Part shown: piece after piece, positions 5,629-20,574 of the stretch
Position numbering within the stretch: position 1 is the first letter of the stretch
Layout: every line of letters starts with the position of its first letter
IMG/VR virus record: IMGVR_UViG_3300044673_000278
Location: 59,694 to 123,693 of that record
Length of the DNA stretch: 64,000 bases
Source: a virus
Lineage: Duplodnaviria; Heunggongvirae; Uroviricota; Caudoviricetes
Reading direction: 5' to 3' (one strand)
The notes under the pieces: model-generated
What the model was told of the DNA's origin: nothing
Database searches by the model: none
Seen by the model: only the letters and a program-made list of their open reading frames with translations
Translations under genes and position numbers: made by a program

Positions 5629-7257
5629 ATGACCAGTCAAATCAATCCCAACAACATCGATGGGACTTACCCAGTAGCCGGCGTGCCCAACAACACGCAA
5701 GGCATGCGTGACAATTTTACTAATACTAGAACAAATTTTCAATATGCAGCGGACGAAATAACCGAGCTTCAGAGCAAAGCCCTGCTCAAAGCTGCTATCA
5801 CCGGAACCACTCTTGACAACAACATGAACAATCAAGAGATCTATGCTGTTCAATTGCGTGATCTCAGTTATGCATATTCTCAACTCACAGCCACTGCTGG
5901 CACAGTTAACATTGACTTTTCTGTGGGCCAATTTCAACAAATCAATCCTTCTGCACCTGTAAGTTTGAATTTTTCAAACTGGCCCACAGCAGGCACAGCA
6001 GGCTTGCTGTATCTTTTGATCAACATTACCAATGTAAGTCAAACTGTTACATTCCCCGCAGCAGTAAATCGCGGAATTGAAAAGATTGCTGGATCTCTGC
6101 CCGGCACAGCCGGAGTATCCAATACTGTTACTTTTGGTGCAACAGGTTATTATGCATTTCAACTTTTGAGCACAGACGGTGGCGCCAATATCTGGATTTT
6201 TGATGATGTTCGGCCCCCAGATACCTTTACATCCAACATTACCATTGCCAACACTTCTGTGAGCACTAGTACCAGTACTGGCGCCTTGGTAGTAACCGGT
6301 GGCACTGGTATGCAAGGCAATCTCAATGTGGGCGGCAACTTGAGAACTTACACCAGTGGTGGCAACATTGCATTCCAAGCCGATGTCAATGGGTTTGTCA
6401 CTATCAATGCCCCCACTGTTCCTGCCAACACCACAGGTGCATTGCAGGTAGTGGGCAGTGCAGGTGGTGCTTATCAACCAATTCTCAATGCCGGCGGTAT
6501 GGTACACGTAACCGGCAATGACGGTTCTGCATCTAGAATTACCAACGACAGTTTTGGTGCTGCTGCCAATGCTTATCCCCTAATGGTCCAACGTCGTGGT
6601 CGTGGCACTGCTGCCTCGCCAACTGCTGTGCAAAGCGGGGATATACTGGCTCGCTACGGCGGAACTGGCTATGGCAACGTTGGTTATGTATTGGCTGCTG
6701 GTAACGTTGCGACCAACACTATGGATGTTGTGGCCTTAGAAAACTACACCACAGCCAATGGCGGCGCCTCTTTTCAATTCTACACTAGCCAAATTGGTGT
6801 GGTCAACCGTACGCTCAGTGCCAACATCACTGCCAACGTTACCACATTCCCTGCCAACGTAGCCGCGGCCAACGTTGTGGTTTCTGGCACAGGCGGTGTA
6901 TTCCTTGTCGACGGCGGCACCATGGGTTACGGTGCGGGTGCAGGTGGTACTGTGAGTCAAACTGGTAACAAGAGTTCAGGTGTTACATTGAACAAGCCCG
7001 CAGGCGAAATTACCATGCAAAACACAGCATTGGGTGCCGATGCTACAGTTCAATTTACTCTAACCAACAGCGCCATTGGCGCCCGAGATGTGTTGTTAAT
7101 GAACATTGTAGGTGGCGTTGCTACAGGTGCTGCATACAACCTGGATGCCAACTGTTCTGCAGGTTCTGCTGTTGTCAGTGTGCGAAACATCACCGGCGGC
7201 TCGCTGAGCGAAGCTATTGTGCTGCGCTTTGTTGTGATCAAAGGATCAATTACTTAA
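5629..7257 (+). CDS. Tail fibre/baseplate-type structural protein
   Basis: N-terminal YPVAG..NNTQG.RDNF anchor-like motif; STSTSTGALVVTGGTG repeat typical of phage fibres; Gly/Thr/Asn-rich. Confidence 0.75.
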   Translation: MTSQINPNNIDGTYPVAGVPNNTQGMRDNFTNTRTNFQYAADEITELQSKALLKAAITGTTLDNNMNNQEIYAVQLRDLSYAYSQLTATAGTVNIDFSVGQFQQINPSAPVSLNFSNWPTAGTAGLLYLLINITNVSQTVTFPAAVNRGIEKIAGSLPGTAGVSNTVTFGATGYYAFQLLSTDGGANIWIFDDVRPPDTFTSNITIANTSVSTSTSTGALVVTGGTGMQGNLNVGGNLRTYTSGGNIAFQADVNGFVTINAPTVPANTTGALQVVGSAGGAYQPILNAGGMVHVTGNDGSASRITNDSFGAAANAYPLMVQRRGRGTAASPTAVQSGDILARYGGTGYGNVGYVLAAGNVATNTMDVVALENYTTANGGASFQFYTSQIGVVNRTLSANITANVTTFPANVAAANVVVSGTGGVFLVDGGTMGYGAGAGGTVSQTGNKSSGVTLNKPAGEITMQNTALGADATVQFTLTNSAIGARDVLLMNIVGGVATGAAYNLDANCSAGSAVVSVRNITGGSLSEAIVLRFVVIKGSIT

Positions 7258-8720
7258 CCAGTTTTGATCTTGCCCAACAACTGCTTGAGTTTGGCACTTT
7301 GAACATCAGCAGTGACTTTGGGCGCATCATCTAACTGGGCCATGGGCTTGTCCCAGGCATGTGTTCCCCCGGTAGGTTTTTCCCAACCCGGGGGTTTTTC
7401 TTCTCCGCCTTCTGCAGGCTTTACACTGGCCTTGGCTTTGATTGCTTCCATTACGCTGGGCTTGGGGCCTCCACGGAAAGTGTCTTGCTCGTCGCCGCCT
7501 GCGTCAGTGATGCGCATGGTATCAATGTTGTACTCTAAATCGATCTTCTGTCCCACGCCTGTGGAACTACGACTCTTCATACACTGAATCTGATACTTGC
7601 CACGCTCTTTCATAGCACGACTTGTAAAGATACCAAACACGTTGTCTGCTGTGTTGATCTTACTAATACCACCTGAAATATGACTGTGGTCAAATTCAAT
7701 TTCTTCCACAGCTGATCGATTCAACTGCGATGCTGTTACCAGCAAGATGCCCAGCTCTTTGGCCAAGTTACGCAGTTCTTCAGAAACATACTTGTCCTTA
7801 ACAAACAAGTCGTTGGGGCTGACTTTTGCACTCACAGGCATCAACAAGTCCAAGTAGTCTACCATCATAAAGTCTACTTTGTGCCCGGTCTTGATCTGAT
7901 ACTCTTTTAAAAACGCACGGATATCGTTGATATTGCTCTGTGCTGGCAATGCTTTGACTTGATAGCTACCTGCTTTCTTGCCCACCATTTTGACTTTGAG
8001 TGCTGCTGTGGATTTGTCCTTGCGAATGTCTTTGGTTGACATGTCAGTCAACATGGCCGCGGTACGCAAGCCAGTTAGCTCTTCTGAAAGTTCTAAACTG
8101 ATATATACACCATGTAGTCCCATTTGCACCCAGTTCAGTGCAATGTTCATCATCACTAGACTCTTACCAGAACCCGAGCCACCAGCAAAGATGTTGAGTT
8201 CGCCTCGACTGAATCCGCCATACAGCAATCTGTCCACTTGTGGCCAACCTGTGCTTACCTGTCCACCTGCATCAAAGTACTTGGTGAACATGCCTTCGGG
8301 ATCAGCCCAAAAGTCTGTGCCAAGATCCTTGGTCAACGAGATCTGCACAGCATCCTTGACCAGTTTCTCCACTGGTTCAAACTCGCCTTTTTCCAACAAG
8401 TCTGCTGCTTTTAAGATCGCACGTTCCAGTTCTTGACGCTTGGTAAAGCCTTCAAACTCTTCCATGAACCAGTTGTAGTGACCCTCGTTGAGATCTGGCA
8501 CTGGTTGTAGTTTGATACCTGTGGCTGCTGCAATCTGTGTTCGGTCTGGCAGTGTACTGAACTTGGCACTGTGTTCTTTGATAAACTCTGCTGCCTTGCG
8601 CAGACTGCGGTCAAAGTTTTCTGGATTGTAGATATTCTGAACACGCACATAGCTCTGTGCATCTTCTAACATCATTTCCAGGAACAGTCTCTGTACGTCA
8701 ACTCCGTAGTCTTTTAACAA
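7254..8720 (-). CDS. gp41: Replicative DnaB-family helicase (T4 gp41-like)
   Basis: Walker A GGSGSGKS, YISLEL, MVDYLDL, TASQLNR, ADNVFGI. Confidence 0.95.
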   Translation of the reverse strand: MLKDYGVDVQRLFLEMMLEDAQSYVRVQNIYNPENFDRSLRKAAEFIKEHSAKFSTLPDRTQIAAATGIKLQPVPDLNEGHYNWFMEEFEGFTKRQELERAILKAADLLEKGEFEPVEKLVKDAVQISLTKDLGTDFWADPEGMFTKYFDAGGQVSTGWPQVDRLLYGGFSRGELNIFAGGSGSGKSLVMMNIALNWVQMGLHGVYISLELSEELTGLRTAAMLTDMSTKDIRKDKSTAALKVKMVGKKAGSYQVKALPAQSNINDIRAFLKEYQIKTGHKVDFMMVDYLDLLMPVSAKVSPNDLFVKDKYVSEELRNLAKELGILLVTASQLNRSAVEEIEFDHSHISGGISKINTADNVFGIFTSRAMKERGKYQIQCMKSRSSTGVGQKIDLEYNIDTMRITDAGGDEQDTFRGGPKPSVMEAIKAKASVKPAEGGEEKPPGWEKPTGGTHAWDKPMAQLDDAPKVTADVQSAKLKQLLGKIKTG

Positions 8721-9684
8721 GATTTTTCTTCCTTAATTCAATTTTGATTCTGCTGGTTTCTCTAGCTTGCATGATACTTAGTACGGTGGCCAAGCGACCA
8801 TACTTCTTCACAGCATCATTGACATCCTTGCAATCTTCCCAATTGGGTATGCTCACTGCCCAACCCAACTCCACTGCACGATCAATCAGTTCCAAACCTG
8901 CTTGGTCTTGATCAGGTACCACTGTGACTTCTCGATCCAGGCTGCGAATCAGTCTGGCCTGCGCATCACTGATGGTGTTGTGCATCACTGCCAAGCCGCC
9001 AATGCTGAGAGCATCAAATATACCTTCCATGACCATGACATGTTGCCAAGATTCATGCTGTTGATCTATGCCAAACACATAGCCAGGTTGACTGTGATTG
9101 ATGTACTTTGGTGATTTGTTGTCTAAGAATCTAGCAGTCCAGCCAATCAGTTTGTTGTCATAGGTGAATGGCACAGTGACATGTGGGCGAACCCAATGGA
9201 TTCCATCATTGCGTATGGCCGTGAGCATAGGAAAGTCTTCAGGCACACGTCGATCTCTAATGTAGTTCCAATACAAGGGCATGTCTGGTGTTATCAACTC
9301 CGATCCCGGTGGCAAATCATCTGACTCTTTGAACTCGATGCCTTGGATAGCATCTGACACACGCTTGCGATCATCGATGATGCCGTGTATGCTGCGATGC
9401 CTCAAACTTTCCAAATTCAACACATCTATTTCAGCTTCGGGTACGCCCAACCAGCTCAACAGTCTACGAGCTTTGAAAGTTACTGTGCGCCCAAGAATAA
9501 AACTGGCTGTGTATCCGCAGTTGAAGCAATGATAGCTCCAACCCGATTCGTTGACTTTGAGTCCGCCGCGCTGACGTCGATCTGGATTTTGTCCGTTGTG
9601 TTGACAACATACCGCATTGAAACTGATCCAGCCGCTGGGGCTGGATTTACGTTTTGCTGGCAAGTAAGTTTGTATGTCAAGCAT
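8698..9684 (-). CDS. gp61: DNA primase (T4 gp61-like)
   Basis: Zn-binding CC...HCFNC, TOPRIM EGIFDA and PDQDQAG, KDVND; adjacent to helicase. Confidence 0.92.
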   Translation of the reverse strand: MLDIQTYLPAKRKSSPSGWISFNAVCCQHNGQNPDRRQRGGLKVNESGWSYHCFNCGYTASFILGRTVTFKARRLLSWLGVPEAEIDVLNLESLRHRSIHGIIDDRKRVSDAIQGIEFKESDDLPPGSELITPDMPLYWNYIRDRRVPEDFPMLTAIRNDGIHWVRPHVTVPFTYDNKLIGWTARFLDNKSPKYINHSQPGYVFGIDQQHESWQHVMVMEGIFDALSIGGLAVMHNTISDAQARLIRSLDREVTVVPDQDQAGLELIDRAVELGWAVSIPNWEDCKDVNDAVKKYGRLATVLSIMQARETSRIKIELRKKNLVKRLRS

Positions 9685-10817: not shown

Positions 10818-11195
10818 ATGGGCAATAACTTATTTGAAAAGCTGACTGAAAAATACCCGTTTATAACGCTGTGCATATATGCCAACGTTGAATACATAGG
10901 TGTAGTACAAAACAGAGATGATGCTGTGACCACTATCTACGACTTTGGTGCAGTGCAAAGTCAGCAAGACAAGTTGGATTTCCTAGAACTGGCCAGTCAA
11001 TGGTGGTGGGAAAGCAACAGATCTATACCCATCAACATATTCTTACGCGGTGATTGGGACCGTTTCAAAGGCACCTTGCGTACCTTCTCAAACAAAGATC
11101 TTGAAATCTTACACGGGCCTATATGCAGCCTTCAAGACATAGCCCGCAAAAAATCTAAACGCAAATCAATTACGCTGGTTCGTCGCATGGACTGA
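10818..11195 (+). CDS. Hypothetical protein
   Basis: 125-aa ORF preceded by a perfect TATAAATA at 10804-10811. Confidence 0.75.
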   Translation: MGNNLFEKLTEKYPFITLCIYANVEYIGVVQNRDDAVTTIYDFGAVQSQQDKLDFLELASQWWWESNRSIPINIFLRGDWDRFKGTLRTFSNKDLEILHGPICSLQDIARKKSKRKSITLVRRMD

Positions 11196-11748
11196 GCAGA
11201 TTCATATGCAATGCCACAAGCCTTGCGTATGATACAGCATGTGACTTCTTGAACACAAATCCGCGGCTGGCATCTCCATCCCATACTGACGCAAATACTT
11301 CTGCCCAAGGCCTACGTTGCAAGTGTGCTTTGCCCGGACGAATAATACTGATAAATGCAGCCATTCTGGGAATAGAGTCGGGTCGCATTTGTTGCAGCAA
11401 ATCTGTGTAGTTTCCTACGTGTACCAATTGAGCAGCCCAGGCACTGTCAGTCCATAAACGCTGCCAATCGGGTGTTTGTGCTAGCACTTGTTCATAATGC
11501 TCAGGACTCTGCACCAAACTGTACACACTCATATTCAGCAAGTCGATTTTGAAATAGCCACGCTGTTCTGCTGTTTCATAGTCCAGTGCTGCACATCCAT
11601 GCACAGGATCTTGTGGTATGTCAGTGACATAGATGCCCGAGTTATGATGCCGCGGTCGTCCATTGACTTCTAGGCGTGCAGGTACATGGCGGATCAACGC
11701 CAGCAATTTATCCCTGTCGGGCATGTCGATGTCAATGTCTGCACTCAT
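11170..11748 (-). CDS. Miniature DNA polymerase III alpha (DnaE/C-family) catalytic-core protein
   Basis: Ordered DnaE motifs ADIDID, HNSGIYV, GYFKIDLL, ISIIRPG, FKKSHAVSYA within 192 aa. Confidence 0.85.
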   Translation of the reverse strand: MSADIDIDMPDRDKLLALIRHVPARLEVNGRPRHHNSGIYVTDIPQDPVHGCAALDYETAEQRGYFKIDLLNMSVYSLVQSPEHYEQVLAQTPDWQRLWTDSAWAAQLVHVGNYTDLLQQMRPDSIPRMAAFISIIRPGKAHLQRRPWAEVFASVWDGDASRGFVFKKSHAVSYARLVALHMNLLSPCDEPA

Positions 11749-12497
11749 AACTTTTCCAATTGAGGTATAATAATTTTTTCTGCAAAGGCTCTGTGTGCGT
11801 CCACTGAATAATGACCAATCAAGGGTTGATCCTTAAAATCGATAGGCTCAAATCCTTGCTGATGGCACCAAGTTGTAAAACTGAACTTTTCAAAGTCAAA
11901 AAAGTTTTCTTCGCTGAGCTGTGATTTAAAAAAGTCCAGTAAATATTCTTCTTTCAGTTCCTCAGACATTGGTCCTTGAAAAATTAAAAATTTAATATCC
12001 AACTGTTTCATCAAAGTCTGAAACATCACAAGATCACACATGAGATTTATGCGTTCTGCATACGGGCTGTAGTAGTATGCACGACCTTGATAGTATTTGT
12101 CAAGAAAATCATTTTGGTACTTGTTTGCAATCTGTTTTCCTCCCAACAACAAATCTCGCCAATTGTTTTTATGGGAAAACATGTGAGGACAAAAGTTAGA
12201 CTCTGCCGGATCGGCGTTTGTTACATCTTCGTGCCATAATTCAAACCTTAATTCAAAAGACAACGAAATCAATGCAATTATTTTTTGTTCCGGATTCAAC
12301 TGTCTTTGCTGAATTAGATCATGCACAGAAGTTCTGACGATGCGTCTATTACAGCTTCCCCTGATTGCATTATTAATCACAAACCCATTGAGATGCTGCC
12401 CAACCACGTGAGCATAGGTATTTTCTTTAAGCGCAGGAAAAAAATTTTGATCGCTGTAACTGTCACCGTTACAATAAACCAGCGGATGATCGTTCAT
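11745..12497 (-). CDS. SGNH/GDSL-like hydrolase or acyltransferase
   Basis: NGDSY, NNAIRGSCN and C-terminal GHYSVDAH. Confidence 0.6.
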   Translation of the reverse strand: MNDHPLVYCNGDSYSDQNFFPALKENTYAHVVGQHLNGFVINNAIRGSCNRRIVRTSVHDLIQQRQLNPEQKIIALISLSFELRFELWHEDVTNADPAESNFCPHMFSHKNNWRDLLLGGKQIANKYQNDFLDKYYQGRAYYYSPYAERINLMCDLVMFQTLMKQLDIKFLIFQGPMSEELKEEYLLDFFKSQLSEENFFDFEKFSFTTWCHQQGFEPIDFKDQPLIGHYSVDAHRAFAEKIIIPQLEKL

Positions 12498-12530
12498 TTT
12501 GTACACAGTTCTATAGTCATAACGGCACGT

Positions 12531-13670
12531 TCATGCTCTAGTAGGGAAATAATCTTGTCTGGTCCCGGTCCTATCCAGATCAGTGGTTACACAGTGTATG
12601 CCGCCATCCCAAAAATATCTGTGCCTAAGTGGAACCACATGCGGAGTCATTCCGTATCTCCCCAGCGCATCAAATACAGATTTGTTGTAGTTGAAAACTA
12701 TGACATTTTTTGGATCGACGATCAACATATTGACATCAAATACTGTTTCCTCCACATACCCTGTCCAATGCTTTAGCCATTGCTCTACCACGTTGATGAC
12801 ATCTTGATCGTGTTCAAAACCTGGTATCCACCAACGACCGTTGTTTTTCTGTTTTAAATGAAGAAAAGAACTAACTTTTTCCCAGCTCTGACTTGGTAGG
12901 TATACTACTTCCCATCCAGGGAACGTGTCTGCATATGTGGGCACGTCTTTAAGACTAATGATCAAGCCTGGCGCAACTGGACAGAATACACCATCGCTAT
13001 GACCTCCTGTATTGACTACATGATTTCTAGTGGTAGTGAACTCTGAGTCTATCAATTTCTGATACTGTTGTCTATCTTGAGTGTACGAATCTGTACCAAA
13101 ATACAAATCTTTACCAACCCTGGTTATTAAAGCTCCAGGTGCTGTACTGATCCGCTGATTGCTTACAATCTTATTTCCTGATTTTTCTATTGTATCAAAT
13201 ATTTTATCATAACTTGAATAAAATTTCTGAAATTTTGATAGATTGTGTAACTCGTTGCATTCATCTTGAATTCGCTGTGGCAACGAATTGAACTCTTCAA
13301 CAGAAGTACATTTTGGCCAAGACGGATCTTTGACTGCTTCGTAAAATTTCTCAATGTTCAGTTGATAACCTTTGTAAAAAACTTCGCCTATCATGATCAT
13401 GTGATCCCTGGGCGTCATTGGTGGAGGCAAATATTTGCCGCCTATAAAGATATCTTTGAACTCAGGAAGCTCGGGCCTCAAAACTCTAACGCCAAATTCT
13501 TCGAGCTTTTTAATTAATAGTTGATAGTCTTCTTCGGTTTCCTGTGCTATCTTCTCAAACAGTTTTCTTACATGTGGTTTAGTTATCCACTGATAGTATT
13601 CGGGTGGGTATGTTTGTCCTACCACACACAATTTTAAAGGATCCCAGTGCTGATATACGCTTAATGTCAT
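12531..13670 (-). CDS. Amidinotransferase (glycine/inosamine-phosphate amidinotransferase family)
   Basis: WDPLK.CVVG, TPRDH, HSDG, FDVNML, GGIHCVTTDL.R with catalytic His, Asp and Cys. Confidence 0.88.
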   Translation of the reverse strand: MTLSVYQHWDPLKLCVVGQTYPPEYYQWITKPHVRKLFEKIAQETEEDYQLLIKKLEEFGVRVLRPELPEFKDIFIGGKYLPPPMTPRDHMIMIGEVFYKGYQLNIEKFYEAVKDPSWPKCTSVEEFNSLPQRIQDECNELHNLSKFQKFYSSYDKIFDTIEKSGNKIVSNQRISTAPGALITRVGKDLYFGTDSYTQDRQQYQKLIDSEFTTTRNHVVNTGGHSDGVFCPVAPGLIISLKDVPTYADTFPGWEVVYLPSQSWEKVSSFLHLKQKNNGRWWIPGFEHDQDVINVVEQWLKHWTGYVEETVFDVNMLIVDPKNVIVFNYNKSVFDALGRYGMTPHVVPLRHRYFWDGGIHCVTTDLDRTGTRQDYFPTRA

Positions 13671-14021: not shown

Positions 14022-14696
14022 TTACCATCCTGCTGTTGTTAGTATTTCTCTAGCATAGGCTAGATCTTCTGCACTGGAATCAAACTTGCTTTGCCACACA
14101 TCACTGTTGATGTAGGGCCACACAATCTGTAGTTGCTCTGAACTCAACTGTGTCAAGAACTCTTGTCCAGATTCTGAATTGTAAATTACCCAAGGACTGA
14201 TACGTCCTGTGGTAATAGCATGGCACGTACCGTTTGCACTGCCATATCTCAAACAATCCTGTGGCCTTGCAGCATTGCGTTCTGCCCAGTCTATGCTGTA
14301 TTCTACACTGCGAGCCAAGGCGTCTGCAACTGATTCGGCCTGCAAGTACCAAATCAAATACTCTGTGTAGATTCGATCACTGCACCATTGATCAATTTTC
14401 TTTTGGTTTTTCAGCAACCAATCGATCATTCTGGCCGGATTGATCACCACCGTGTCCACACAGTAACGTCCGAACTTTACAAATGCTCGGTAGTACGGAG
14501 ACTCAGCAAAGTCATCGTAAGTACGTGACTTGGTGCTTTTGTTCATGAGCCTGTAGAACTCAAGATATGCTTGAAACCCAATCTGAACTCCACGTTCGTG
14601 CTGTTGCATTCTACGCCGCTTGGGCTCGCACATGTGTGCAACAATGGTGCTTTCTCTAGCAAATGTTTTGTGACAGAACTCACACTGGTACGTCAT
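14022..14696 (-). CDS. Hypothetical protein with an N-terminal C2HC zinc finger
   Basis: CEFC...F......HMC; start reassigned to MTYQC. Confidence 0.7.
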   Translation of the reverse strand: MTYQCEFCHKTFARESTIVAHMCEPKRRRMQQHERGVQIGFQAYLEFYRLMNKSTKSRTYDDFAESPYYRAFVKFGRYCVDTVVINPARMIDWLLKNQKKIDQWCSDRIYTEYLIWYLQAESVADALARSVEYSIDWAERNAARPQDCLRYGSANGTCHAITTGRISPWVIYNSESGQEFLTQLSSEQLQIVWPYINSDVWQSKFDSSAEDLAYAREILTTAGW

Positions 14697-14697
14697 T

Positions 14698-15150
14698 TCA
14701 CTTGCGTTCTTGGCCTGCAGACTTAAAGTAAGCATCAATTTCTTTCTGTGATACCAACTGCATCATCACATCAATTTCATCGTCTTTGTAAGTGGGATAT
14801 ATTTCTTGCAGTGCTTTGCGCTTGGCACTGGCCCCGGCTTCTTTTTTCTTGGGCGGGATCCAGTTGTGCTTGGGTGTGCCCATGTCTGGACTCACTGTGG
14901 TTGCCAACAGCCATTGCAGCTTTTTGTGTGCGGCTGTGTTCACTGCAAAGAAGTGTTTGTTGAGTCGTTCGTTGGTAGAGATCACGTAAAACTCTTGCAG
15001 ATCACGTGAACCTTCCACAGCCGAACCCCAACGAATCATGAGATAGGGCGAAAACTTTTTGCGTTCTTCTTCTGTGAGTTCGTCGTAGAATCGTCGATTC
15101 TTGCGATCGAACTGTCGCATTTCGTTGCCGATGTTTAGTTTATCACTCAT
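14698..15150 (-). CDS. Putative clamp-loader small subunit (T4 gp62-like)
   Basis: Size and pattern (F.PYLM.RW.S...NE.LN...LQW...WI) reminiscent of gp62; similarity is weak. Confidence 0.5.
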   Translation of the reverse strand: MSDKLNIGNEMRQFDRKNRRFYDELTEEERKKFSPYLMIRWGSAVEGSRDLQEFYVISTNERLNKHFFAVNTAAHKKLQWLLATTVSPDMGTPKHNWIPPKKKEAGASAKRKALQEIYPTYKDDEIDVMMQLVSQKEIDAYFKSAGQERK

Positions 15151-16245: not shown

Positions 16246-16941
16246 TCATTTCACATTGTCAACAATTTTACGATGTATGTTGGCAGCAATGATCTCCTGA
16301 GTTGCTCGGTCAGTATGAAATGGGGAGTCGTAATCTCTGTTGGCAGCACTAAAATCGTATGCTGCTTGTCCAATGTCTGCATCTTTGAAATTCAATGGCA
16401 AGATTCCTGTGGCTTGAATTCGATTGTGCCAGTACTCAAAAACCCACTCGTCGCGTTGAGCACAAACTGAATCATTGTACATGTATTTGAGATATAGTTT
16501 AACTGCTTTGATCTGCTCAGCAGTTAAATTAAAAAATGGGTTGTTTTCAAGGTCTTGCCACACTGTACTGACTACCATACCTCCGTCGGTTTCTACATCG
16601 TCAAACGAGCCAACATACGGTGTGCCAGAGCTAGAGTAACAAGGATTGTAGTATATGAAGTTTTTTAGAGGAGCATGTTGATTATAAAATTTATCTTTTA
16701 AATATACCTCGACCCTGCTGCTCCAAGTTTTTCCATACACAATTACACTGGGATTGAGTTTCAAAGCCTGATCAATTTGAAACCAAATAGCAGTATTGCT
16801 CATGCCTCCGTGTGCAAGATTCGTTACTTCGTAACCGTACTGGTCTTCTAGTATCTGACTAAAATGAGCCCTGGGCCCAGTGGTCTGAATTGTTTGAACA
16901 GTGCTGGCACAAAAACTATCGCCGCATACAACGATCTTCAT
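16246..16941 (-). CDS. SGNH-like hydrolase or acyltransferase
   Basis: CGDSF, NLAHGGMSN, C-terminal DSPFHT. Confidence 0.6.
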   Translation of the reverse strand: MKIVVCGDSFCASTVQTIQTTGPRAHFSQILEDQYGYEVTNLAHGGMSNTAIWFQIDQALKLNPSVIVYGKTWSSRVEVYLKDKFYNQHAPLKNFIYYNPCYSSSGTPYVGSFDDVETDGGMVVSTVWQDLENNPFFNLTAEQIKAVKLYLKYMYNDSVCAQRDEWVFEYWHNRIQATGILPLNFKDADIGQAAYDFSAANRDYDSPFHTDRATQEIIAANIHRKIVDNVK

Positions 16942-18407
16942 GCCAGTTTCATCCACTCTAGTTTTTCAGCAGTAAACGGGTAGTTGGCTTCCTTGTAGTA
17001 GGCCTTGCGCTTGGTCAAATGGCGCTTGGCGAACTTGCATGTTGAAGTTATGTCCCAAATTTCTACGTGGTCTTTGTCCTCGGCTTTGCGGATACCACGA
17101 CCGATACTTTGAATAACCCGCACAAAACTCTTTCCTGGCTCCACCAGAACCAAGTTAAAGATCCTAGGTATGTTAATGCCCACAGCAGCCACACCGTATG
17201 TTGCCACAATGATTTTGTCTGTTGCTTCGGCCACTGATTCGTATTCTGTTTGCCTGTCTTTGGATTTGGTTGCGCCAGAAACAAACACTGCACGATCACC
17301 CAGTCGTTCAACCAAGGCGTGTCCAGCAGCTACACGATCCACCAAGACCAGGGTATTGCCAGTTTCGTTGACCTGTTGAATCAGTGCTGCCATTGCGTCC
17401 AACCTGCCAGACTCTTCCAACAGGTATTTTAACTCACTTTGATAGTCTTTGAACTCTACATGGTCCACCAACTGCACAATATTCACATGGCACTGTGCCA
17501 GTACACCTTGCTGTTGTAGTTCGTTGGCTGACAGTTTGCTAACAACAGGACCCAAGCTGACCAGCAGTGCTTGGCTTTCGAACTTCTCTTTGGGCACTGT
17601 GCCTGTGAGGCCCCAGCGAATTGGCACTCTCGCCATTACACCTGTGAGCAAGGTTTTTAGTGCATCAGCTTTGGCCATGTGTACTTCGTCAACCATGACG
17701 CATACTACATCTTCAATGAAGTCTTGTATGGTGATGTCTGCTACACCGTTCTTGGTATTCTTCATCAGCACGTTGAGGCTTTGCCATGTGCAGATGGTGT
17801 GTCTGTGCCCGTGTTCTTTTCTATCGCCAAAGTACACACCCACGTCCAGGCCAACGTTGCGATAGTCTTTTTCTGTTTGTCGCACAAGATCTTTGTTGGG
17901 CACAATCACTATGCTACGACCAAATGGCTCCACTGCGGCGCTCAGCGTGGCAGTCATGATTGTTTTGCCTGCACCCGTGGCCACTTCCTGAATGCTCTGT
18001 GGATTTTCCAAGAAGTTGTTGACAATCTCCACCTGATAGTCGCGCAACATAATAGGCTGTCCTTCTGCAGGATGCCCTTTGGGCCATGTCTTGTGTGCCC
18101 AGCTGTGTTCTGTTACTTGTGTAAATTCAAATGTGTTGCTGTAGTCTCGTTGATCATCTAAGTCAATGTCGTATCCCAACTGCTCTAGCACAGGAACGAT
18201 ATCCGGCAAGAGATTTGTAAAGGTACTTCCGCCCAGTTGGAAATAGCTGACTTTGCCGTCCCAGCGTCCTAGCCTCACAGCAGGAAGGTAACGTGCATAT
18301 GGCACATCGTATTTGAAAGCGTTTACTAAACGTTTGCGAGCGTCAAGATCCAATCCTTCGATTTTGATGTTAACCTCGTCCTTGATAACTATGGTTGCTT
18401 GTTTCAT
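16938..18407 (-). CDS. uvsW: SF2 DNA helicase UvsW
   Basis: LRDYQ, ATGAGKT, DEVH, LTGT, GINIP, QSIGRGIR; start reassigned to MKQAT. Confidence 0.93.
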   Translation of the reverse strand: MKQATIVIKDEVNIKIEGLDLDARKRLVNAFKYDVPYARYLPAVRLGRWDGKVSYFQLGGSTFTNLLPDIVPVLEQLGYDIDLDDQRDYSNTFEFTQVTEHSWAHKTWPKGHPAEGQPIMLRDYQVEIVNNFLENPQSIQEVATGAGKTIMTATLSAAVEPFGRSIVIVPNKDLVRQTEKDYRNVGLDVGVYFGDRKEHGHRHTICTWQSLNVLMKNTKNGVADITIQDFIEDVVCVMVDEVHMAKADALKTLLTGVMARVPIRWGLTGTVPKEKFESQALLVSLGPVVSKLSANELQQQGVLAQCHVNIVQLVDHVEFKDYQSELKYLLEESGRLDAMAALIQQVNETGNTLVLVDRVAAGHALVERLGDRAVFVSGATKSKDRQTEYESVAEATDKIIVATYGVAAVGINIPRIFNLVLVEPGKSFVRVIQSIGRGIRKAEDKDHVEIWDITSTCKFAKRHLTKRKAYYKEANYPFTAEKLEWMKLA

Positions 18408-18414
18408 TGATACA

Positions 18415-18443
18415 AGTATATAGTTATCTTGCACAAAAGTCAA
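18415..18443 (-). promoter_or_regulatory. sigma70 promoter of uvsW (leaderless)
   Basis: TTGACT-17 nt-TATACT-7 nt-ATG. Confidence 0.7.
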
Positions 18444-18467
18444 AAAAGCAGGCACCGAAGTGCCTGC
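18442..18467 (-). terminator. Intrinsic terminator with a cUUCGg loop
   Basis: GCAGGCAC-TTCG-GTGCCTGC-TTTTTT on the minus strand. Confidence 0.9.
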
Positions 18468-18513
18468 TGTAAAGCCCAGGGCCGGAGCCAACCGTTTGTT
18501 GCCCTGGGAAAAC

Positions 18514-18624
18514 TTAACTCATGTCCGCTACACGAACATCAAATCCTGACTCTGTGTATGTATCTGCTTCACTGGCGTCATCTACAGAAAACAAGAACAA
18601 ATCACCATCCCAAATCTCGTACAT
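18514..18624 (-). CDS. Small acidic hypothetical protein (36 aa)
   Basis: MYEIWDGDLFLFSVDD...; AAGGAG SD; below ORF-track cutoff. Confidence 0.6.
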   Translation of the reverse strand: MYEIWDGDLFLFSVDDASEADTYTESGFDVRVADMS

Positions 18625-18633
18625 ACTGTCTCC

Positions 18634-18786
18634 TTAAAAAATGGCATTTGCGGCGGCCGCAGCATTCCACGCACTGAAAAAAATATTCATCCAGCCTAGC
18701 TTGTTGTTGCCGGCTTCAAAGTCTCGTTCAGCCCATTTCCACATCAGCCAAGCAAGAAAAATATTGATCACAACCCAAAAGCTCAT
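18634..18786 (-). CDS. Small membrane protein (50 aa)
   Basis: MSFWVVINIFLAWLMWKW...; ATGA overlap. Confidence 0.6.
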   Translation of the reverse strand: MSFWVVINIFLAWLMWKWAERDFEAGNNKLGWMNIFFSAWNAAAAANAIF

Positions 18787-18890
18787 GCCATCACCGCAAT
18801 CAAAAAGATAAAAAACGCTGCCACAGGATAGCCAAACAACAGGGCCATCATTGCTAGTATGGTTCCAAAGAAAGCCTTGTCACTGCTCAT
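18783..18890 (-). CDS. Small membrane protein (35 aa)
   Basis: MSSDKAFFGTILAMMALLFGYPVAAFFIFLIAVMA. Confidence 0.6.
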   Translation of the reverse strand: MSSDKAFFGTILAMMALLFGYPVAAFFIFLIAVMA

Positions 18891-18892
18891 AA

Positions 18893-19015
18893 TCAATGCA
18901 CTTGAAACTTGAACCAATTGTGTTCAACGATTAGCAATATCGAAGTGAGCAGCAAACCCCAAATCAGATTACCCGACAGAGCCAATGCCAACACCGCAAG
19001 CCATCCAGTAATCAT
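18893..19015 (-). CDS. Small membrane protein (40 aa)
   Basis: MITGWLAVLALALSGNLIWGLLLTSILLIVEH... Confidence 0.6.
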   Translation of the reverse strand: MITGWLAVLALALSGNLIWGLLLTSILLIVEHNWFKFQVH

Positions 19016-19016
19016 G

Positions 19017-19181
19017 TTATTTCTCTCTACGGTTTGCAAACCAGACCAGCGGAGCAAAAATCACTGCCATAAAGATCAACCACGGCACAATCACTTCAAC
19101 AAACATTGAGCCACCCAACACCCACAGCATATAGATGCTGAACGCAGTAAAGGTATAGATCAAATATACAGTGAGACTCAT
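19017..19181 (-). CDS. Small membrane protein
   Basis: Two hydrophobic segments and a basic tail; AGGA SD. Confidence 0.55.
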   Translation of the reverse strand: MSLTVYLIYTFTAFSIYMLWVLGGSMFVEVIVPWLIFMAVIFAPLVWFANRREK

Positions 19182-19183
19182 GA

Positions 19184-19366
19184 TCAGTCCTGCTTCAAGC
19201 AAACAAACCGGACTTCTTTGGTAGTGCGTTTACCAAGTGCTTCGCTCTGTTTACCAGCAGCCAGACAGGCAGCTTCGGACTTGAACCCTGGCACTGTAGT
19301 CAGCGCCATTGAATCTTTTTCACTGAGCATGCCTGCATGCAAAAATAAAATCAAAACGTATGTCAT
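19184..19366 (-). CDS. Small exported protein with a Cys pair
   Basis: Hydrophobic N-terminus, F.SEAAC...C pattern. Confidence 0.65.
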   Translation of the reverse strand: MTYVLILFLHAGMLSEKDSMALTTVPGFKSEAACLAAGKQSEALGKRTTKEVRFVCLKQD

Positions 19367-19572
19367 TCTTCGACTCCGAAACCAAAATGTTCCAAGATGC
19401 CCTTAGGGCCATCAAACGCAAGTGTAGCACATTCCCGAACAATCAACTCGGCGAACTTGGCCACATCCAGTTTTTCTGTGGGCTCGTCCAAGCCCTTGGA
19501 TAGAGCGTAGTCCTCTGCTTGATCGGCAGGAACGGCACTCAGCTTGATCAGTTCTTGAATTCGTTCGTTCAT
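19363..19572 (-). CDS. Small paralog family member (MNERI...KFAELIV.EC...HFGVEE)
   Basis: Motifs shared with 19569-19817 and 20131-20325. Confidence 0.75.
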   Translation of the reverse strand: MNERIQELIKLSAVPADQAEDYALSKGLDEPTEKLDVAKFAELIVRECATLAFDGPKGILEHFGFGVEE

Positions 19573-19817
19573 TGTTCAACTCCGAAATGTTCCAGCAACT
19601 CTGTTCGCACATCGTCGCAATCCAACATCTGGTTACCGTCGTCGTCACAAGTAACCAGGTCATCAATATGGTCAGCACATTCCTTGACAATCAACTCGGC
19701 GAACTTTTCTTTAACCACTTGAAGATACTCCTTGCCTTGATATAGCCCATTGGCATCGCAAACACCCAAAGCATATTCCACGGCCTGCGCATCAAGTTCT
19801 CGAATTCGTTTGTTCAT
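19569..19817 (-). CDS. Small paralog family member
   Basis: MNKRIREL...EKFAELIVKECA...EHFGVEQ. Confidence 0.75.
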   Translation of the reverse strand: MNKRIRELDAQAVEYALGVCDANGLYQGKEYLQVVKEKFAELIVKECADHIDDLVTCDDDGNQMLDCDDVRTELLEHFGVEQ

Positions 19818-19820
19818 AGT

Positions 19821-19943
19821 TTAACTCCTAATTCTACGCCATACAACTTCAAATGTAGTTGGCTTTAACATAACTTCCCAACCTTGAGGAATATGTTCAG
19901 GGAATAGACTTGTTTTACCGTTGCTGTGTTTGTACAGTTTCAT
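19821..19943 (-). CDS. Small hypothetical protein (40 aa)
   Basis: MKLYKHSNGKTSLF...; GGAG SD and ATGA coupling. Confidence 0.55.
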   Translation of the reverse strand: MKLYKHSNGKTSLFPEHIPQGWEVMLKPTTFEVVWRRIRS

Positions 19944-20134
19944 TCTTCAACTCCACAAAGTTTTAAAATCTCTGCTCTATACCGGCCGCCTTCAAAGTTG
20001 TCGGCAATGTGATACATTAGTGTATAGCAACCCATTGCGGCTATAGCATCGTGCTCTGGACGATATTCAACACCGGCAAGACTGGCAAACTCTGGCCCCC
20101 AGTATTGTTTGCGGTCCTCAATGTAGTTGCTCAT
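19940..20134 (-). CDS. Small hypothetical protein sharing only the GVEE 3' end with the paralog family
   Basis: Ends LKLCGVEE; coupled on both sides. Confidence 0.65.
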   Translation of the reverse strand: MSNYIEDRKQYWGPEFASLAGVEYRPEHDAIAAMGCYTLMYHIADNFEGGRYRAEILKLCGVEE

Positions 20135-20325
20135 TCTTCAACTCCGAAATGCTTATTCAGTTCATCAAATGCTGATTCGTGCCCAGTAATGAACAAAGTT
20201 TGCATCACCTCTTCTAACAATAAATCGGCGAACTTTTCAACGTTAACCTCGTTCATCGGACCATCATCGCTGTCGTAGTCAGGATTGGTGGCCTGCTTGA
20301 TAAGTTCCCGAATTCGTTGGTTCAT
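20131..20325 (-). CDS. Small paralog family member
   Basis: MNQRIRELIKQA...EKFADLL...KHFGVEE. Confidence 0.75.
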   Translation of the reverse strand: MNQRIRELIKQATNPDYDSDDGPMNEVNVEKFADLLLEEVMQTLFITGHESAFDELNKHFGVEE

Positions 20326-20384
20326 TTGTCATCCTTTATCGAAACGGGACTTATTGGCACTGCCCGTTACGCACACGGCAGGGG

Positions 20385-20564
20385 TTAACCCTGGAATCCC
20401 ACACAGGACTCGAATACTTCAATGAGTTCTTCGTCCGTCATGCCGTCAAGTTCGGCTGGGTCAGTGATATGATCTTCCTCGTCACAATCAAAGCAACGAG
20501 GAATTCCATAACCATCACTGTCTTTGACAAAGGCTTTGAGACGATTGATGACAAGTTCACGCAT
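20385..20564 (-). CDS. Small acidic hypothetical protein (59 aa)
   Basis: MRELVINRLKAF...; AAGGAG SD. Confidence 0.6.
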   Translation of the reverse strand: MRELVINRLKAFVKDSDGYGIPRCFDCDEEDHITDPAELDGMTDEELIEVFESCVGFQG

Positions 20565-20574
20565 GGTTCTCTCC

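Follow-up and report, generated by a model that had tools for sequence, protein, structure and literature searches.

The open reading frame at positions 11170-11748 of the DNA analysed here almost certainly encodes the C-terminal half of a split, minimal form of DNA polymerase III alpha (Pol III alpha), the C-family polymerase known from bacteria as DnaE or PolC. This DNA (hereafter the window) is a stretch of 64,000 nucleotides from an uncultivated jumbo phage, the genome of which is represented by one 251,693-bp IMG/VR contig estimated to be 72% complete. The gene lies on the minus strand, starts with ATG and encodes a protein of 192 aa belonging to phrog_11778. The best explanation for it, and one that we consider probable, is that its product belongs to the two-piece 'minimal DNA polymerase III alpha' found in T4-related jumbo phages of group 2.2, as the C-terminal unit of that enzyme. 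This unit will be called the C-half, and its partner, a separate small protein in related phages, the N-half.

A preliminary description of this DNA had recognized a series of DnaE-like motifs in the gene. Its coordinates and every motif string that it quoted are exact, and the strand, which it did not give, is the minus strand. The protein begins MSADIDID and carries, in order, ADIDID (residues 3-8), HNSGIYV (35-41), GYFKIDLL (64-71), SIIRPG (134-139) and FKKSHAVSYA (166-175). The candidate catalytic aspartates are D4, D6 and D69, and the motifs of the fingers are R137-P138-G139 and K167/K168-S169-H170. In an alignment of 81 diverse homologues D4, D6, K67, D69 and P138 are invariant, while D8, H35, G38, R137, K140, K167, H170 and A175 are nearly so. 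The start codon overlaps the stop codon of an upstream 253-aa open reading frame (plus-strand positions 11745-11748 read tcat, that is, ATGA on the coding strand), as had also been claimed.

Neither a Pfam search with the 192-aa protein, which matched no family, nor a single-sequence search against PDB chains, which returned no match, leads to DnaE, which is thus reached only by family profile and by fold. In PHROGs, residues 3-186 align with positions 7-192 (of 197) of the phrog_11778 profile, annotated as 'DNA polymerase' (E 2.5e-51). When a profile of the 81 homologues was compared with PDB sequences, DnaE chains alone were matched (E 6e-6 to 1e-4), and the alignment places KIDLL on E. coli K553/D555, IRPG on R639-G641 and FKKSH on F756-H760; DIDID falls on D401/D403 of E. 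coli DnaE by way of a weak third stretch of the same alignment. Comparison by hhalign of the 81-sequence alignment with a full-length metagenomic DnaE gave a probability of 91% (E 1e-6).

The fold leads to the same enzymes. The AlphaFold2 model of the 192-aa protein is a confident one (pLDDT 95.6, pTM 0.88), and its best 18 matches in Foldseek are all C-family polymerases (18/18; E around 2e-3, TM approximately 0.4-0.5 by query). With VIA-align, the model superimposes on PolC of G. kaustophilus (3f2b; Z 9.7, 188 residues aligned, rmsd 3.8), on Taq DnaE (3e0d; Z 9.2, 187 aligned, rmsd 4.4) and on E. coli DnaE (2hnh; Z 7.9, 183 aligned, rmsd 4.2), residues 1-189 of the model corresponding to 399-780 of the E. 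coli chain, and the first unrelated row falls to Z 3.3. The predicted fold is therefore that of the second part of the DnaE palm and of the proximal fingers (Z 7.9-9.7 against 3.3 for the next unrelated structure), which was the fold check proposed in the preliminary description, and the homology read from the motifs is real, the PHROG, the profile, hhalign and the fold all pointing to C-family polymerases.

The alignment to residues 399-780 also bears out the earlier statements that the corresponding span of DnaE is roughly twice as long and that the PHP domain, the GRGS part of the palm, much of the thumb and fingers and the clamp-binding and OB regions are missing. About 190 residues of the mini-DnaE take the place of about 382 in the E. 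coli enzyme: the thumb region (approximately 418-537) is reduced to some 33 residues, and the segment 642-738 of the fingers (about 97 residues) to some 10. The C-half has no equivalents before E. coli position 399 or after approximately 780, and lacks the PHP domain, the clamp-binding motif, the OB fold and the tau-binding tail. It shares with bacterial DnaE and PolC (2HNH, 3E0D, 3F2B) the palm strands with their three aspartates, the identical order of KxD, RPG and KSH, and a fold that can be aligned along the entire 192-aa protein, but differs from them in that its polypeptide is interrupted inside the palm. The G-S loop is missing from the 192-aa protein, and the Pol-beta-type core is thus incomplete in this one polypeptide; it would be whole only in the predicted heterodimer, or in a fused form described below.

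The missing part is encoded by a separate gene in relatives. They carry an N-half of approximately 170-180 aa that passes Pfam PF07733 and has the C-terminal pattern GVGRGSS...EFL(R/N/K), GVGRGSS being invariant among N-halves. Matches to PF07733 above the cut-off are separate small open reading frames in Sinorhizobium phage Phosso (about 177 aa), in Pseudomonas phage PAC2 of the PA5oct group (about 169 aa) and in three close uncultivated relatives, G001 (300 kb), G002 (343 kb, 99% complete) and G003 (210 kb). The N-halves of Phosso and PAC2 end ...WGVGRGSSVASYVLFLIG...(D/K)EFL(N/K) and are encoded tens of kilobases from the C-half; in the close relatives the distance is roughly 90-100 kb. G001, G002 and G003 each have, along with the N-half, a family B polymerase of about 900 aa, and Phosso and PAC2 also possess a family B polymerase, whereas two shorter relatives (43-51% complete) have neither the N-half nor this polymerase. 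In PAC2 (PP408249.1 202949-206726; loci L003, L005 and L007) the family B polymerase is found in two separate frames, one of 825 aa and the other of 379 aa, with about 2.5 kb between them, which suggests either a split gene or an interruption by a mobile element.

A model of the N-half (pLDDT 80) has its best match to a PolC-type entry (Z 10.8), and its residues 64-176 align with 271-393 of E. coli DnaE (Z 8.7, 104 aligned, rmsd 3.0). The two halves thus abut on the map of E. coli DnaE, the N-half covering 271-393 and the C-half 399-780.

Both halves are widespread. Homologues of the C-half at 35-41% identity occur in 96 records of the phage collection (from the PA5oct group, Atu_ph07, Phosso and GAP32/CBB/RaK2-like phages) and the N-half in 110, with near-identical counts per genus: these are equal for Escherichia (34), Pseudomonas (11), Erwinia (8), Salmonella (8), Xanthomonas (4), Yersinia (4) and Agrobacterium (2), and stand at 10 N-halves to 11 C-halves for Klebsiella. 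Among the extra N-half records are weak, partial matches to phage genes for DnaE of the ordinary, full-length kind. An exhaustive search of representative sequences placed the C-half family in 352 clusters at 50% identity, nearly all of 185-215 aa. Among the 8,000 candidates scored per half, at least 7,960 protein clusters reached E <= 0.001, and the family is present on at least 575 viral contigs.

In one case the two halves are found in a single chain. A word-indexed search returned no longer relatives of the C-half, and the exhaustive search of representatives gave one, a 375-aa protein (P0172, matching PF07733) encoded at L117:1066-2193 (+) on a low-GC metagenome contig of 2.4 kb from ENA. 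Residues 15-180 of this protein correspond to the N-half of G002 (BLASTP E 2e-20) and residues 190-372 to the C-half of the window, the two being joined by a linker of about 10 residues, as in DnaE. It is the single example, scans of viral and metagenome contigs having yielded no second fused form. Those scans also returned two ordinary DnaE genes. In one of them, a metagenomic DnaE (L120:1366-5382, plus strand), the PHP domain is on a separate 382-aa open reading frame directly upstream of the 933-aa polymerase frame, a different and adjacent kind of split in the same enzyme.

Co-folding of the two halves, which had been suggested as a check in the preliminary description, was carried out with both entered as alignments, the N-half being taken from G002, whose C-half is 80% identical to that of the window. 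The pair scored 0.91 against 0.01 for the best of three controls and so passes them; a mark of 0.91 is reached by 58/80 solved complexes and by 2/110 mismatched pairs. At least 94% of contacts are shared between the runs, and the pLDDT of the partner is at least 90. The predicted interface is formed by residues 137-150 of the N-half (a strand and the GRGS loop) and residues 2-10 of the C-half (the DIDID strand), and a second predicted contact lies between the extra N-terminal region of the N-half and residues 41-66 of the C-half. As the halves belong to one solved fold, the result may be an echo of full-length DnaE structures; what the co-fold shows is compatibility of the halves rather than binding, and the binding of the N-half to the C-half is a prediction of the model. 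The separate PF07733/GRGS protein of the relatives, the abutting fold maps, the fused form and the co-fold together support the earlier suggestion that the gene encodes one subunit of a split enzyme.

The idea of a split minimal Pol III alpha is itself already published, as a prediction from comparative genomics (Iyer et al. 2021, Viruses 13:63, PMC7824862). According to sections 3.4.1 and 3.5 of that paper, group 2.2 jumbo phages pair a family B polymerase with a phage-specific minimal Pol III alpha that comes in two pieces, an N-terminal protein that binds the NTP and a C-terminal one that binds Mg2+ and the template. The genes for the two pieces lie at distant loci, and the split enzyme is proposed to aid the synthesis of one strand, or repair. 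The gene of the window agrees with this system in its family (E 2.5e-51), its length, its start at the DxD strand and its conserved site beside primase and helicase among T4-like replication genes, and relatives of the phage agree in encoding the N-terminal unit separately and in having a family B polymerase. It differs from the phages described there in coming from an uncultivated phage, its product being 35-41% identical to the proteins of the isolates; in that the partner half and the family B polymerase are not on the incomplete contig; and in that a variable two-gene insert parts the C-half from its usual upstream neighbours. The single-chain 375-aa form is unmentioned in the sections of Iyer et al. 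cited here. The literature searched contained no bench study of any member of the split family, and the PA5oct omics paper makes no mention of it. Full-length phage DnaE, as in group 3.2 jumbo phages such as Bacillus phage G, in Mycobacterium phage Patience and in Cellulophaga phiST, also represents a phage-encoded C-family core; unlike the split mini-DnaE, these are host-like enzymes that include a PHP domain and serve as the main replicase, and they give only weak partial matches to the N-half. As this kind of protein has already been published as a prediction, the copy in the window adds little by itself. What is added here is the abundance of the family, the structural map of the two halves (271-393 and 399-780), the natural fusion and a co-fold that passes its controls.

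The mechanism that we propose follows from where the chain is broken. The break falls at a point equivalent to E. coli DnaE residues 393 to 399, after the helix that follows the G-S loop and before the DxD strand. The C-half supplies the palm strands with all three metal-binding aspartates (D4, D6 and D69) together with a reduced version of the fingers in which the RPG and KSH motifs are kept. The elements that grip the nucleotide triphosphate, namely the first palm strand, the G-S loop and the helix, are on the N-half (about 176 aa). Since the break lies inside the core of the Pol-beta-type nucleotidyltransferase fold, neither half should catalyse alone, and the two would be expected to rebuild a single C-family active site as an obligate heterodimer, a mechanism that draws on homology, fold mapping, the fused form and the co-fold model. 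That the C-half is obligately paired with an N-half in the complete genome of the phage seems very likely.

The pair would add nucleotides to a 3'-OH, and we infer that it acts as a DNA polymerase of low processivity, auxiliary to the family B replicase. Its fixed place beside the primase and helicase suggests primer extension or the filling of gaps. Template-directed DNA polymerase activity of the pair is predicted with a chance that we put slightly above even. Without a thumb, a clamp-binding part or a proofreading module, the stable binding of primer and template is left unexplained. A bolder proposal, which we regard as doubtful, is that the pair, or the 375-aa fusion, is a working minimal C-family polymerase that dispenses with the thumb, the PHP domain and the clamp-binding part and, in the manner of Pol alpha, extends primers with the primase and helicase before handing over to the family B replicase. 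If this were true, it would be the smallest C-family polymerase known, and it would offer a model of what the bacterial replicase was like in its ancestral state.

In the main rival reading, which was the second option of the preliminary description, the pair would have kept its two-piece C-family chemistry and lost the copying of DNA, having been repurposed as a nucleotidyltransferase for untemplated addition, for making a nucleotide-derived small molecule or for nucleotidylation of macromolecules, for example in host takeover or counter-defence. Other nucleotidyltransferases of the Pol-beta fold have non-replicative roles, which lends this reading some weight, as do the loss of the thumb, of the clamp-binding motif, of the OB fold and of about 100 residues from the fingers, and the presence of a complete family B replicase in the phage lineage. 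We nevertheless consider it improbable, because the invariant or near-invariant residues (RPG, KSH, K67 and the aspartate triad) are specific to C-family DNA polymerases rather than generic to the superfamily, because in four lineages the gene is part of a conserved replication module with primase, helicase and UvsW, and because defence or counter-defence genes were not seen among its neighbours.

Of the T4-like replication genes that the preliminary description had named, helicase, primase and UvsW are confirmed in this module: a DnaB-like replicative helicase (7254-8720, minus strand) and a Toprim DNA primase (8698-9684, minus strand), both in conserved synteny with the C-half, and an SF2 helicase of the UvsW type (16938-18491). 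A convergent 125-aa open reading frame of unknown function (10818-11195, plus strand, phrog_11637) overlaps the mini-DnaE gene by 26 nt at its 3' end, and a convergent small open reading frame follows the C-half in Phosso, PAC2 and GAP32 as well. The core order of C-half, convergent small open reading frame, intervening gene or genes, primase and helicase is found in Phosso, PAC2, GAP32 and G002, the intervening genes being annotated as virion structural protein in GAP32 and Phosso. On the other side of the C-half, a C2H2 zinc-finger protein (14022-14738, minus strand, phrog_11058 in the window) is immediately upstream in PAC2, and in G002 a 117-aa gene alone lies between the two.

In the window, two open reading frames of 253 aa and 379 aa (11745-13670, minus strand) are inserted upstream of the C-half. 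The 253-aa frame has an N-terminal 'NGDSYSD' (GDS-type, SGNH-like) and a weak match to DUF6071, and is unmatched in G002; the 379-aa frame (phrog_25854) has a homologue elsewhere in G002, at 130.7-131.7 kb. As these two constitute a variable insert, the ATGA coupling is not to a conserved partner. The 253-aa frame was considered as the partner half and set aside, being unlike the N-half and missing at this site in relatives.

Further along, at 18600-20570 (minus strand), an array of small open reading frames of about 2 kb is missing between the UvsW-type helicase and an AAA protein in G002. Four frames of this array (64-82 aa) are paralogous, starting MN(E/K/Q)RI(Q/R)EL, with a core FAEL(I/L)V.EC and an end HFG(V)E(E/Q), and a further paralogue lies about 70 kb away (genome 9794-10039, L009). 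There are no tRNA genes in the window.

The preliminary description had called for a search of the rest of the genome for a small GRGS-containing open reading frame and a B-family polymerase; neither was found in the contig, and both are present in relatives (G001-G003, Phosso and PAC2). Searches of the 251,693-bp contig with PF07733 and by tblastn with the N-halves of relatives gave no N-half, and those with PF00136 and by tblastn no family B polymerase. A scan of all open reading frames of the genome for G[RKP]G[SA] brought up a 148-aa frame (genome 6852-7298, 'WPGRGSV'), which has no PHROG match and no significant tblastn match to true N-halves, and the motif was put down to chance. A DnaQ-like exonuclease (PF00929) was likewise not detected in the contig; in GAP32 the same module includes a gene for an epsilon-like (DnaQ-type) 'DNA polymerase exonuclease subunit' (NC_019401.1 208050-208895; L118:726-1571), just upstream of the UvsW-type helicase.

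An ORF-by-ORF comparison accounts for the two absent genes. The contig is collinear with G002 over 0.2-144 kb (G002 213-342 kb) and over 155-242 kb (G002 2.5-96 kb), and the segment of G002 at approximately 96-213 kb, which holds both the N-half (190.4 kb) and the family B polymerase (141.2-142.4 kb), has no counterpart in it. Because the two genes lie in this segment, their absence from the contig is best explained by incompleteness, as far as the comparison with G002 allows us to infer. The contig spans both ends of G002 (342 kb, then 2.5 kb), and G002 is thus circularly permuted relative to it. About 11 kb of lineage-specific sequence outside the window (genome 144,000-155,000) has no match in G002.

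The want of an N-half in all 251,693 bp is what would favour a 192-aa protein working without one, or persisting as a non-catalytic DNA-binding remnant. This we judge very improbable: what the contig, at about 72% completeness, is without is exactly the part of G002 (about 96-213 kb) that is home to the N-half and the family B polymerase; a nucleotide site cannot form alone where the first strand and the G-S loop are missing; and an invariant aspartate triad argues against a non-catalytic remnant.

Conservation of the gene bears on whether it is functional at all. The preliminary description held that it is no decayed pseudogene, and proposed dN/dS across related phages as a check. All of the IMG/VR relatives fetched (80/80, 75-83% identity) have intact frames of 184-195 aa and keep the DxDxD start, the aspartate triad and KxDxL, no frameshift being seen. 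Pairwise dN/dS of these relatives against the gene of the window is approximately 0.05-0.14 which, dS being saturated, is a qualitative sign of strong constraint only. Decay of a full-length DnaE taken from a host, which a length of about one sixth of DnaE might suggest, has a negligible probability in view of these intact close relatives under strong purifying selection, the length of 184-216 aa kept across the 352 clusters, the clean internal deletions and the compact, confidently predicted fold.

If the pair of C-half and N-half is active, the mini Pol III alpha would mark out the smallest catalytic core for a replicase of the bacterial type, and the replisome of these phages would be one that mixes polymerases of the bacterial type with those of the archaeo-eukaryotic type.
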